DNA of 64,000 nt, taken from Candidatus Methanomethylicia archaeon (GTDB taxonomy: Archaea; Thermoproteota; Methanomethylicia; Nezhaarchaeales; B40-G2). The stretch is from positions 32,001 to 96,000 of the forward strand of contig JAPDJI010000020.1 in the NCBI GenBank assembly GCA_029259155.1, in the 5' to 3' direction. Position numbers and translations under genes: made by a program. Numbering within the stretch: position 1 is the first letter of the stretch; every line of letters begins with the position of its first letter. The notes below the pieces were generated by a model that was given only the letters and a program-made list of their open reading frames with translations, was not told the DNA's origin and searched no databases. Positions 12,665 to 28,544 of the stretch are shown piece by piece.

Positions 12665-13072
12665 TTGGCTAAGAGGCTGAGCATAATCGATGTGGACCGC
12701 TGCGTAGGTTGTCAATGCTGTATGTTCGCCTGTACACGCCGTTTAGGCTACGCAGGGCTGGGGAAGTCTGCGATAAAGATTAGGTCTGCTGGCGGCGTAG
12801 AGAGGGGCTTTGTGGTAATAGTCTGTCGAGCCTGCCCTGACCCTCCTTGTGCCAAGGTTTGCCCTGTAGACGCCATTACTCTAAGGAAGGGGGGAGGGGT
12901 GCTGGTCAACGCGTCGATATGTATAGGTTGCGAGCTTTGCCGTGAAGCTTGTCCCTTCAACGCAGTCGGCTGGGATGATGAAGCCAACAAACCAGTAATC
13001 TGCGTGCACTGTGGACAATGCGTGGAGTTTTGTCCACATAATGTATTGAGGGTGGAGGAGGTGACTGCTTAA
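12665..13072 (+). CDS. 4Fe-4S dicluster protein (AOR small subunit)
   Basis: Four CxxCxxCxxxC-type motifs; coupled to AOR. Confidence 0.92.
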   Translation: MAKRLSIIDVDRCVGCQCCMFACTRRLGYAGLGKSAIKIRSAGGVERGFVVIVCRACPDPPCAKVCPVDAITLRKGGGVLVNASICIGCELCREACPFNAVGWDDEANKPVICVHCGQCVEFCPHNVLRVEEVTA

Positions 13073-14832
13073 TGGATGCTTTACCCCGCAGGGTGCTCTA
13101 CATAGACCTCGACCACCGAAGGTTCAAGGTAGAGGATAGGGAAGACCTCTTCAAGCATCGCCTTGGAGGGATCGGCGTTGCGATAAGGCTTCTAACAGAG
13201 GAGTGCCCCAAGGCAGCTGATCCCTTAAGCCCTGACAACGTGGTCGTGTTTGCCGTCGGTCCTCTGACAGGCATCCTCCCCTTAGCCTCTAAGACGGTGG
13301 CCGTCTTCAAGTCGCCTCTAACCAAGACCTTAGGGGAGAGCCATGCTGGCGGTAGGAGCGCGGTGGCCATTAGGTCGGCGGGGTATGGAGCCATCGTGAT
13401 CAAGGGAGCCAGCTCCACCCCCGTCTACTTGGTCATAGATAAGGAAGGGGTAAGGTTCAGGGATGCCTCAGGGCTATGGGGAGTAGCTAGCAGCTTCACT
13501 GTGGGCAGGGTTATACGTGAACGAGAGGCAGGAGCAGGGCTTAGGACAATAATGAGGATTGGTAAGGCAGGAGAAAAGCTGGTGGCTTATGCCTCAGTGA
13601 TAACCGAAACCTACAGACACTTTGGTAGGCACGGCTTAGGGGCGGTCTTTGGAAGCAAGAAGCTTAAGGCAATAGTCGTTCAGGGAGACCAGACAGTAAA
13701 GGTAGCTAACCCAGCGAGCTACAGAGACCTTTACAGTAGGGTGTTTAACGAAGCAGTCAAGTCCAGCTTGATGAAGAAGTACCACGACCTAGGCACCGCC
13801 GCTAACATCATCCCCTTAAACCACATAAAAGCGCTGCCCACTAAAAACCTTACCCAACAGGGCTTTGAAGGAGCTGAGGAAATCTCAGGTGAGAGCTTAG
13901 CTGAAAAATACTTAGGTAGACGTATCGCGTGTAGCCACTGCCCTGTCGCCTGCATCCACCTAGCTGCTTTAAGAGAGCCCTACGTCGATGAGCCTTACTT
14001 CTATAAAACCACCTTCGTAAGCTACGACTACGAGCTCCTCTACGCCCTCGGCTCCATGATAGGGGTTTCCGACGTGTCCAGCCTCCTGAAGCTGATACAT
14101 GAAGTAGATAAACTAGGGCTAGACGCCATGAGCACTGGCGTAGCGCTAGCTTGGGCTACGGAAGCCTACATGAAGGGGTTGATAAACGAGAAGGATACTC
14201 TAGGCCTTGAGTTTAAGTGGGGAAGCTCGGAGGCCTACCTTAAAGCCGTGAGCTACATAGTCGATCAACCCAACGAGTTCTACGCCTCCCTCGCTAAAGG
14301 AGCGGAGGCGGCGGCTTCAAGGTACGGCGGCCTAGACTACGCGCTATGTTTCGGAGGACTTGAAATGCCAGGCTACCAGACAGGCCTAGCTGCCTATGTA
14401 GGCTTCTTCACAGGTGCACGGCACAGCCACCTAGACTCGGGAGGCTATAGCTTAGACCAGAAAGCCTTGAAGGAGAAGAAGAGGTTAACGACGGAGGAGG
14501 TTGCCTCTATCCTTCTAAAGGAGGAGGCTTGGAGGCAAATACTGAGCAGCCTCGTAGTATGCTTCTTCGCTAGGGAGATCTATAGGCCAGGGCTAGTAGC
14601 TGAAGCCTTAAGCCTACTAGGCTTACACCTCAGCGTAGAAGACCTAGACAAGCTAGGCTTAGAGATATTGAAGGAGAAACAGAGCTTTAAGTTAAGGGAG
14701 GGCTTTGACCCAAGAAGGCTGAGAATACCTAAGAGGATATTGGAGGCGTCGACGCCTCTAGGCCCAGTAAACGAGGAAGATCTGAGAGAAGCCATAGCTA
14801 AGTACTTCGAGAAGCTAGAGCTTGGCAGCTGA
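13072..14832 (+). CDS. Aldehyde:ferredoxin oxidoreductase family (W-pterin) protein
   Basis: KSPLT, ESHAGG, GRHGLGAVFGSKKLKA, CSHCPVAC, DYE, GLDAMSTG, VVCFF. Confidence 0.93.
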   Translation: MDALPRRVLYIDLDHRRFKVEDREDLFKHRLGGIGVAIRLLTEECPKAADPLSPDNVVVFAVGPLTGILPLASKTVAVFKSPLTKTLGESHAGGRSAVAIRSAGYGAIVIKGASSTPVYLVIDKEGVRFRDASGLWGVASSFTVGRVIREREAGAGLRTIMRIGKAGEKLVAYASVITETYRHFGRHGLGAVFGSKKLKAIVVQGDQTVKVANPASYRDLYSRVFNEAVKSSLMKKYHDLGTAANIIPLNHIKALPTKNLTQQGFEGAEEISGESLAEKYLGRRIACSHCPVACIHLAALREPYVDEPYFYKTTFVSYDYELLYALGSMIGVSDVSSLLKLIHEVDKLGLDAMSTGVALAWATEAYMKGLINEKDTLGLEFKWGSSEAYLKAVSYIVDQPNEFYASLAKGAEAAASRYGGLDYALCFGGLEMPGYQTGLAAYVGFFTGARHSHLDSGGYSLDQKALKEKKRLTTEEVASILLKEEAWRQILSSLVVCFFAREIYRPGLVAEALSLLGLHLSVEDLDKLGLEILKEKQSFKLREGFDPRRLRIPKRILEASTPLGPVNEEDLREAIAKYFEKLELGS

Positions 14833-14996
14833 GGGACATATTTCAGGTCAGCTTGCCTAAACGTAGGAAGCAAAAATGGTCAATAAACGCCTAGAGTCAA
14901 AGGTCCATGGACACATCGTTACGTTGCCTCATCCAAAAAGAGGCGCAAACAATATAACAAGCCTTTAAAAGGAGAGGAAGGGCCCGGCTACCCTGT

Positions 14997-15127
14997 GCCA
15001 GCCCATAGAAGAGGGCCACGAACGGGTGGTGTAGGGGTTAACACAACGGCCTGTGGAGCCGTGGATCCCGGGTTCGAGACAGTCTTCCCCATAAAGGGGG
15101 GCTGCGAGAATCCCGGCCCGGGCCCCA
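14997..15127 (+). tRNA. tRNA-His(GTG) with two introns (3/4: 15000-15022; 59/60: 15079-15110), encoded CCA
   Basis: Removing both BHB-bounded introns gives GCC|CGGG..ACGGC-CTGTGGA-GCCGT..TTCGAG|T..CCCGGGC-C-CCA. Confidence 0.88.
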
Positions 15128-15201: not shown

Positions 15202-16014
15202 TTGAACCCCTCAGAGCTTCTCGAGGTGGCGGTGGAAGCTGTAAAGAAGGCTAAGGAGGCTGCTTGTGAAGCTTTGGTTAAGGGAGGTAGGGCTAGGGTT
15301 AAGGTGGGGGCTTCAGGAGATGAGACCTTAGAGGCCGATGAGGCCGCGGAGGAAGCCATTCTTGAGGTGCTTAAAGCTAGGCTACAGGGAGCTACGGTGA
15401 TAAGCGAGGAGCTAGGCATAGCTGATCTTGGCGGTGGTGGACCCCCCTACGTCTTCGTAGATCCTTTAGATGGAAGCCTCAATGCTAAGCGCGGCTACCC
15501 CTGCTTTTCATCCATGGTGGCCTTTGCCTCTAAGCCTAGGCTGATCGAAGTGCAGGCCATGGCTGTGGTGAACATGCTTACAGGAGACCTCTACTGGACA
15601 GTCAAAGGGGAAGGAGCGTTCCTCAACGGTGTCAAGGTCTCAGCTTCGAGTTGTGCCAAGCTAAGTGAAGCTTTAGTGAGCTTAGATTTCTCAAAGCGTA
15701 ATAGGCCTGAGGGCTACGTATCTAAGATAGCCTCCATAATAGAGGAGGCGCGCCACGTAAGGTTTCTTGGCAGCAATTCACTTGAGGTCTGTTTAGTGGC
15801 TTGCGGCGCTTGCGATGCGTTCATCGACCTTAGAGGTGGTTTGAGGCTCCTCGACGTGGCGGGGCCCCTCCTCATGGTCAGGGAGGCTGGAGGCATCGTT
15901 CACGTAGAGCCTGGAGGCTTAGAGGTTGAGGTGGATGTTAAGCGTAAAGCAAGTTTAATTGCCGCCTCCACGGACAAGCTCTTACACGAGATATTAGGTT
16001 TGGTAAAGGCCTAA
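15202..16014 (+). CDS. suhB: Inositol monophosphatase / FBPase family protein
   Basis: ISEELG, VDPLDGSLN, LDVAG motifs. Confidence 0.88.
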   Translation: MNPSELLEVAVEAVKKAKEAACEALVKGGRARVKVGASGDETLEADEAAEEAILEVLKARLQGATVISEELGIADLGGGGPPYVFVDPLDGSLNAKRGYPCFSSMVAFASKPRLIEVQAMAVVNMLTGDLYWTVKGEGAFLNGVKVSASSCAKLSEALVSLDFSKRNRPEGYVSKIASIIEEARHVRFLGSNSLEVCLVACGACDAFIDLRGGLRLLDVAGPLLMVREAGGIVHVEPGGLEVEVDVKRKASLIAASTDKLLHEILGLVKA

Positions 16015-28441: not shown

Positions 28442-28544
28442 GGGCCCGTAGCGCAGCACGGACACATATGCCGTGAAGCGCGGCGGCCTTCTATACATCG
28501 TTGAGGAAAGCCGTCGGTCCCGGGTTCAAATCCCGGCGGGCCCG
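28442..28544 (+). tRNA. tRNA-Arg(TCT) with two introns (D-loop 20a/21: 28464-28476; 37/38: 28494-28508)
   Basis: GGGCCCG acceptor; helices ACGG/CCGT and CTTC/GAGG with 3-nt bulges; spliced loop CT-TCT-AA. Confidence 0.88.

Follow-up and report, generated by a model that had tools for sequence, protein, structure and literature searches.

We analysed a 64,000-nt stretch of the genome of an uncultured hydrothermal archaeon assigned to Candidatus Methanomethylicia (contig JAPDJI010000020.1, positions 32,001 to 96,000, hereafter the window; assembly 94 % complete, 47 contigs, genome label G000) at the locus of its tRNA-His gene. On the evidence of the sequence, positions 14997–15127 of the window very probably constitute a functional tRNA-His(GUG) gene carrying two bulge–helix–bulge (BHB) introns, the first of which interrupts the acceptor stem between nucleotides 3 and 4 (position 3/4) and would depend on the leader for its splice motif. 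ARAGORN made no call on the unspliced gene, which scored 24.7 bits against the Rfam tRNA model (cut-off 29). Removal of both introns in silico yielded a 76-nt tRNA-His(gtg) by ARAGORN, with a perfect cloverleaf, discriminator C73 and an encoded CCA end, and removal of intron 1 alone yielded no tRNA. Within this tRNA-His the GUG anticodon occupies a 7-nt loop closed by a 5-bp stem, and an assembly-wide scan, which anticodon arms split by introns would escape, returned no second His anticodon arm accompanied by a T arm. The locus therefore carries a warning for annotation: the sole tRNA-His gene of the genome escapes standard finders.

Intron 1 shows the complete form of the archaeal splice motif, which is described in a passage of PMC4090602 as a 4-bp helix bordered on opposite strands by 3-nt bulges, within which the RNA is cut; here it has flanking helices on both sides (hBHBh′). 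The central helix pairs TGTG (14994–14997) with CACG (15017–15020) and is bordered by the bulges CCA (14998–15000) and AAC (15021–15023); the inner hairpin (h′) consists of four GCCC/GGGC base pairs closed by an 8-nt loop, and in the outer helix (h) the leader sequence CTACCC (14988–14993) pairs with tRNA nucleotides 5–10 (GGGTGG, 15024–15029) through five Watson–Crick pairs and one G–T pair. Cleavage after the second base of each bulge would remove 15000–15022 and join GCC to CGGG, giving the complement of the 3′ acceptor strand CCCGGGC (15117–15123). The leader thus supplies the entire 5′ strand of the 6-bp outer helix and three of the four bases of the central helix strand, and the outer helix can form only in a transcript that starts at or before ~14990. 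Because the motif is made from leader bases, splicing must precede trimming by RNase P.

The minimum free energy (MFE) structures computed with RNAfold contain this BHB both in a 47-nt piece (−19.5 kcal/mol) and in the 158-nt precursor (−70.8 kcal/mol). Against shuffled sequences these energies stand out only weakly (z = −1.79, reached by 9 of 200 shuffles, and z = −1.37, reached by 14 of 200, respectively) because the region is rich in G+C, and folding energy as modelled is no proof by itself in such a stretch. A random genomic 6-mer would pair as well as the 6-bp outer helix with p = 0.002, rising to 0.016 when G–T pairs are admitted without limit. A preliminary description of this DNA had proposed a tRNA-His gene with a 3/4 intron, a full BHB with the junction GCC|CGGG and a motif built from leader bases that imposes splicing before 5′ maturation; reading, folding (including that of the 158-nt precursor) and in-silico splicing bear all of this out, and every element it listed lies where it was placed. 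What had gone unreported were the second intron and the T at position −1. The features of the locus, and those of two further tRNA genes discussed below, are collected in Table 1.

Table 1. Features of the tRNA-His locus (window coordinates) and of other tRNA genes with a leader copy of the acceptor strand. PWM, position weight matrix score; BRE, transcription factor B recognition element
Feature	Location	Strand	Description and basis
Weak TATA-like box AACAATATAA	14948..14957	+	PWM 4.6; spacing fits a start at ~14980–82
Strong TATA-like box GCCTTTAAAA	14961..14970	+	PWM 9.7; A-rich BRE-like stretch before it
Spare 5′ acceptor strand GGGCCCGG	14980..14987	+	Exact complement of 15118–25
Outer BHB helix h, 5′ strand	14988..14993	+	Leader CTACCC, pairs with 15024–29
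Leader −3 to −1	14994..14996	+	TGT; with G14997 forms the 4-bp central helix; position −1 is T
Exon 1	14997..14999	+	tRNA-His nt 1–3 (GCC); direct reading, ARAGORN on spliced sequence
Intron 1	15000..15022	+	23 nt, position 3/4, full hBHBh′; reading, RNAfold, in-silico splicing
Exon 2	15023..15078	+	nt 4–59: D arm, GTG anticodon arm, variable loop, T stem 5′ strand, T loop to G59
Intron 2	15079..15110	+	32 nt, position 59/60, full hBHBh′, T stem = h
Exon 3	15111..15124	+	nt 60–73: T60, T stem 3′ strand, acceptor 3′ strand CCCGGGC, C73
CCA end, encoded	15125..15127	+	Direct reading, ARAGORN on spliced sequence
tRNA-Glu(UUC)	G000 C11:11291-11396 (L025)		GCCCCGG, 6-nt spacer, GCCCCGG + body; 9 nt complementary to the 3′ end; D-loop intron
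tRNA-Asp(GUC)	L037, L038 (G017, G020; family f6)		Leader copy, 3-nt spacer, 13-nt intron at ~10/11, T-loop intron

Intron 2 likewise forms a complete hBHBh′, with helix, bulges and flanking helices all present and the T stem serving as h. The T stem (15068–72 with 15112–16) runs on into the central helix (TTCG, 15073–76, with CGAG, 15105–08), the bulges are AGA and AAT, and h′ (CAG/CTG) is followed by a further stem. The T loop obtained after removal of the intron, TTCGAGT, is that of the intron-less tRNA-His in a related metagenome-assembled genome (MAG; L007), and in a sister genus (G001) the tRNA-His gene is interrupted at 59/60 as well, by an intron of 16 nt. The gene is flanked by an aldehyde ferredoxin oxidoreductase gene (13072–14832) and an inositol-monophosphatase-family gene (15202–16014). 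A 143-aa reverse-strand frame that spans tRNA-His returned no Pfam match and is probably spurious.

The leader contains a second feature, a spare copy of the 5′ acceptor strand. The 8-mer GGGCCCGG consists of one extra G, a G in the place of G−1 (G14981) and tRNA nucleotides 1–6 (GCCCGG), and a 9-nt spacer separates it from the gene. The preliminary description had noted that this 8-mer perfectly complements the 3′ acceptor strand, and the match is both confirmed and non-random: random genomic 20-mers reach eight complementary bases to the tRNA-His 3′ end with p = 2.25e-4, and none of the 37 other tRNA genes of the genome has six or more complementary bases in the 20 nt upstream, the longest such complement being 5 nt (two genes). 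Coincidence in G+C-rich DNA, to which the partly palindromic acceptor stem (CCCGGG) would lend itself, is hardly credible given these figures and given that the 8-mer matches the ancestral G−1 plus acceptor strand at the ancestral promoter spacing (see below). A blastn-short search of the genome with both introns and the leader returned only chance-level matches of 14–16 nt, with no sign of intron transposition. The copy is also unlike an att-site tRNA fragment left by an integrating element, for which repeats of tens of bases beside an integrase-bearing element would be expected: the repeat measures 7–8 nt, the spacer 9 nt, and no integrase lies nearby.

A position weight matrix was derived from the sequences that precede 37 tRNA genes of the same genome; in 25 of these genes its 10-mer begins 31–35 nt ahead of the mature 5′ end, and tRNA leaders in this genome are accordingly very short as a rule. 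Starts were predicted from the usual archaeal spacing between promoter and start, and from the fact that clear promoters of this genome can begin as close as 31 nt to a mature 5′ end. The strongest candidate at the tRNA-His locus, GCCTTTAAAA, ranks in about the top 0.02 % of genomic 10-mers, a score equalled by 6 of the 37 tRNA promoters, and begins 36 nt before G14997; it predicts a start near 14990–93, downstream of the copy. An RNA from there would contain the entire central helix and at most 4 bp of the outer helix, without the 8-mer, and the two to three extra bases in the spacing of GCCTTTAAAA are just what the central helix needs. The second box, AACAATATAA, lies in the top 1 % of genomic 10-mers (5 of the 37 assigned tRNA promoters score lower) and begins 34 nt before G14982; of the two, this weak box is the only one from which an RNA would begin with the 8-mer. 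The preliminary description had named a start past 14987 as grounds for abandoning its model, and it is such a start that the strongest box predicts. The tRNA-His gene presents an upstream copy together with a 5′-proximal intron, but that this copy is transcribed is doubtful.

Folding predictions lend no support to a role for the copy in promoting the splice motif of tRNA-His. The probability of the complete BHB was 0.44 at 37 °C, 0.23 at 60 °C and 0.05 at 75 °C for an RNA starting at 14980 (with the copy), compared with 0.55, 0.27 and 0.03 for one starting at 14988 (without it), and fell to 0.07 at 37 °C for a start at 14990, which leaves a 4-bp outer helix. In this model, BHB formation appears to depend on the outer-helix strand and not on the copy, contrary to the earlier suggestion that the copy helps the precursor to fold. 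That suggestion had been extended to an ordered switch in which the real 5′ strand displaces the copy after splicing. With both introns removed and the 17-nt leader kept, the copy-paired fold stays favoured over the true acceptor by 4.5–7.7 kcal/mol (ensemble energies −46.9 versus −39.2 kcal/mol at 37 °C and −22.4 versus −16.8 kcal/mol at 75 °C), these energies being nearest-neighbour estimates in which proteins, base modifications and tertiary contacts lie outside the model. If transcribed, the copy would be predicted to trap the RNA unless proteins intervene.

Relatives of the locus were sought in 41 related genomes, in genome contigs (two loci) and in metagenome contigs (six loci, which by eye comprise four tRNA-His genes, one other tRNA and one non-tRNA sequence). 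Among these, the 3/4 intron and the 8-mer were found in the same species only, on contig L009, which is identical to the window from 14952 to ~15200 and differs at 14925 and 14951; the latter difference (A14951G) falls in AACAATATAA and gives it a score of 3.9. The locus is present in 11 sequencing runs, none of them listed as an RNA run, and the Logan contigs of the four DNA runs that we compared showed no variation in the leader or BHB where they cover the locus, the sole in-gene difference being A15091C in the hairpin loop of intron 2 in one run (X5). In the sister genus G001, of the same family, the tRNA-His gene has the acceptor stem GCCCGGG/CCCGGGC, encodes G−1 and lacks a 3/4 intron, and its G−1 and GCCCGGG lie ~30 nt behind the start of a TATA box. 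The corresponding stretch of the window, G14981 with the GCCCGG after it, is located 31 nt behind a TATA-like box whose first base is 14950. Alignment of the tRNA-His upstream regions of G000, G001 and G003 was unreliable and was not used.

A scan of all 44 tRNA loci in the genome revealed a second leader copy within 20 nt of a 5′ end, at tRNA-Glu(UUC) (Table 1). Its promoter (score 8.9) lies 34–35 nt before the upstream copy, the same distance as in the paralogue tRNA-Glu(CUC), so that the only good promoter is placed for the copy, which aligns with +1 to +7 of tRNA-Glu(CUC). The tRNA-Glu(UUC) of G001 has the same copy (9/9 bases) behind a different, 4-nt spacer, and also a D-loop intron; that of G002 has neither copy nor intron. 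By hand, no register could be found in which a BHB would excise a hypothetical 13-nt intron from tRNA-Glu(UUC), and in silico the copy reduces the predicted helix probability. Directly before the tRNA-Glu(UUC) leader copy of G001 lies a second TATA-like stretch (L027, ~1470–1481), too close to serve the gene; such boxes can therefore arise by chance in A+T-rich spacers.

Pattern searches, which covered two acceptor sequences, extended the comparison to the class and phylum. Within the class, the pattern GCCCCGG...GCCCCGGTAG was present in 4 genomes out of 62, which added a tRNA-Asp gene of family f6 (Table 1). In this gene the central helix of the ~10/11 intron uses true acceptor bases 5–8, and in G017 the copy raises the predicted probability of that helix from ~0.001 to 0.12–0.31. 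Across the phylum, the same pattern matched in 9 of 401 genomes, with five of the nine hits apparently coding and not tRNA, and a reversed-pattern control gave a similar number of hits. The most common acceptor sequence, searched as GGGCCCG...GGGCCCGTAG, gave no match in the 62 genomes of the class. The leader-copy layout is therefore rare. [quoted passage not shown]

Several other tRNA genes of this genome are unusual in their own right. At tRNA-Thr(UGU) (C26:682-754), a 9-nt stretch located 49 nt upstream, before the TATA box, is complementary to the 3′ end plus trailer. Within the window, a 103-nt tRNA gene on the forward strand (28442–28544; Rfam 48.2 bits, no ARAGORN call) reads by eye as a tRNA-Arg(UCU) that carries one insert within its D loop and another following the anticodon. 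Many tRNA genes (for Lys, Arg, Ile, Leu, Tyr and Asn) have non-canonical or multiple introns, and ARAGORN mislabels intron-bearing tRNAs, e.g. as ‘Stop(tta)’, ‘Phe(aaa)’ or ‘Gly(acc)’. Our survey of the tRNA genes of the genome did not find Trp, Leu(GAG/CAA) or Pro(GGG).

The genome encodes the machinery that processing of this tRNA-His would call for: two EndA paralogues of the splicing endonuclease (PF01974; 105.7 and 72.7 bits), one RtcB ligase (PF01139; 593 bits), an archaeal type-A RNase P RNA (183.8 bits) and a Thg1 homologue (100.9 bits) with an intact 271-aa frame. RNase P RNA gave two above-cut-off matches in the MAG (C29:11926-12224, 183.8 bits, and C26:11109-11414, 146.5 bits), which could reflect an extra copy or the 2.6 % contamination. 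G−1 is an identity element of tRNA-His, and Thg1-family enzymes add G opposite C73. Here, T14996 occupies position −1 of the working 5′ end, and G−1 is encoded only in the spare copy (G14981), whereas five of the six other tRNA-His genes compared encode it (G001, G003, G004, L013 and L014; L007 does not, and in this resembles our gene). C73 and the Thg1 gene agree with the Thg1/G−1 system. Processing would begin with splicing by an (αβ)2-type endonuclease, a subunit arrangement suggested by the two paralogues, and RtcB; RNase P would then remove the leader, and Thg1 would add G−1 opposite C73, because position −1 is a T.

We are inclined, by a modest margin of belief, to regard the 8-mer as a relic of the old gene start, comprising G−1 and the acceptor strand at the old promoter distance. 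The old start would have been left upstream when a 38-nt insertion, made up of a new 15-nt leader/acceptor piece and the 23-nt intron, rebuilt the 5′ end; the weak upstream box may continue to drive transcription of the copy, which would in that case pair with the 3′ acceptor strand, and according to the energy model the copy would be neither required for the splice motif of tRNA-His nor freed by splicing. A relic is the simpler reading because G001 has G−1 and the acceptor strand at a normal TATA distance and no 3/4 intron, and for tRNA-His it is favoured by the promoter analysis, the ancestral G−1 and the absence of a predicted benefit. Where the copy is absent from relatives, as at the His gene of G001 and the Glu gene of G002, the 5′ intron is absent too, a parallel that fits this interpretation. 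So does tRNA-Glu(UUC) of the same genome, whose upstream copy matches the first bases of its paralogue and has the promoter set for it. Several points nevertheless weigh against it. If the strong box is the promoter and the 8-mer the old +1, that box would sit inside the old TATA-to-start spacer, so that it must be of later origin or be offset by a compensating deletion; an untranscribed relic should decay, yet all eight bases are intact, which fits only a recent event; and all bases from 14980 to 14997 are paired in the predicted precursor. Retention of the Glu(UUC) copy (9/9) between two genera with a changed spacer (CCCGTC versus CCAA) speaks for selection on such copies, and the gain in central-helix probability predicted for Asp makes a helper role plausible in some genes. 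Moreover, the transcription start, the junctions and the order of steps are inferred from sequence.

The alternative of most weight, which we nonetheless consider unlikely for tRNA-His, holds that the transcript begins at or before 14980 and that the copy acts as a surrogate acceptor strand for as long as the BHB engages the true 5′ strand, which takes over after splicing so that RNase P can cut; the copy might in addition keep the 3-nt first exon attached and mask the genuine RNase P site. The MFE structure of the precursor from 14980 does stack the copy helix on a complete BHB, the 8-mer is far from chance, and the weak box has the right spacing. In the Glu(UUC) genes of G000 and G001 and the Asp genes of G017 and G020, the only good promoter would make the copy the first transcribed sequence, and to the conservation of the Glu copy across two genera can be added a 90–600-fold rise in the predicted central-helix probability of Asp. 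Against this stand the strong promoter match with its start at ~14990–93, a BHB probability in tRNA-His that the copy leaves essentially unchanged (start 14980 versus 14988), a post-splicing balance from which no switch is predicted and the lowered helix probability in Glu(UUC). It is far less probable that the copy is the true first exon (G−1 plus nucleotides 1–6), with the 38 nt of 14988–15025 removed in one or two steps to leave the mature tRNA with an encoded G−1, as relatives have. The copy does have G−1 and the ancestral promoter spacing, and this junction would yield the same mature sequence; however, inspection by hand of seven splice registers gave no BHB in the precursor or once-spliced RNA, the sole BHB cuts at 14999|15000 and 15022|15023, and the 15 nt that would remain after this cut form no helix of their own. 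We also think it improbable that the gene is a decaying pseudogene with the functional tRNA-His in the unassembled 6 % of the genome. Incomplete assembly and sub-threshold scores in standard finders would permit such a scenario, but neither BHB motif nor the spliced cloverleaf shows a flaw, the second contig of the species matches the locus exactly, as do the contigs of four runs where they cover it, and the scan of the assembly gave no other His anticodon arm.

Compared with described systems, the 3/4 intron itself is not new: ‘extreme’ 3/4 introns are reported from certain Thermoproteales in a passage of PMC4090602 (citing Sugahara et al. 2008). The motif, the 3/4 position and the presence of a second intron at the common 59/60 position agree with what that passage says of crenarchaeal non-canonical BHB introns, as do the two EndA paralogues, which are also found in organisms with broad substrate specificity; the differences are that our host is an uncultured vent archaeon and not a cultured member of the Thermoproteales, and that the passage does not mention leader dependence or a leader acceptor copy. 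In the split and permuted tRNAs of Nanoarchaeum, Caldivirga, Staphylothermus and Thermofilum, leader and trailer are described as pairing into a BHB (passages of PMC4090602, PMC4033280 and PMC3218864). Common to those tRNAs and ours would be a sequence from outside the tRNA that supplies a strand of the motif and holds the pieces together through G+C-rich leader pairing. By comparison with these descriptions, tRNA-His is a single contiguous transcript, RNase P and not the endonuclease would remove its leader, and the 8-mer has its complement in the 3′ acceptor strand of the tRNA itself.

The closest analogue of a relic is the tRNA-Thr of Caldiarchaeum, for which a passage of PMC3293823 sets out a model: integration of a mobile element gave the gene its intron, and a 5′ tRNA fragment stayed behind upstream. 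By analogy, our preferred reading of the 8-mer as an old gene start would follow the logic of that model minus the mobile element, and in both cases, as far as that passage goes, relatives without the repeat are also without the intron. The repeats described here differ in being 7–8 nt long (9 nt in Glu) and 3–9 nt from the gene, not 1.8 kb, and the tRNA-His locus has no integrase or element. Our literature search found no paper describing a spare or decoy acceptor strand in a tRNA leader, and the word ‘leader’ occurs zero times in the text passages of a 2026 Asgard preprint. The 3/4 intron is thus already known, and the leader acceptor copy is without a published description that we could find.

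An intron in the acceptor stem poses a particular problem, in that its splice signal needs bases of the mature stem and also a leader that RNase P removes. A BHB built from the leader is one solution to this problem, and it fixes the order of processing. If our reading of tRNA-His is true, the rebuilding of its 5′ end shifted the gene from an encoded G−1 to dependence on Thg1. The idea of a helper should not be dismissed for leader copies as a class, and we put forward, tentatively and with somewhat more doubt than conviction, that leader acceptor copies recur, under selection, alongside introns located towards the 5′ end of archaeal tRNA genes. If so, the copy may free the true strand for the splice motif, as the energy model suggests for Asp, or may record the gain of an intron. 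The His, Glu and Asp genes would in this way bear on how archaeal tRNA introns arise and on whether leaders act in splicing.

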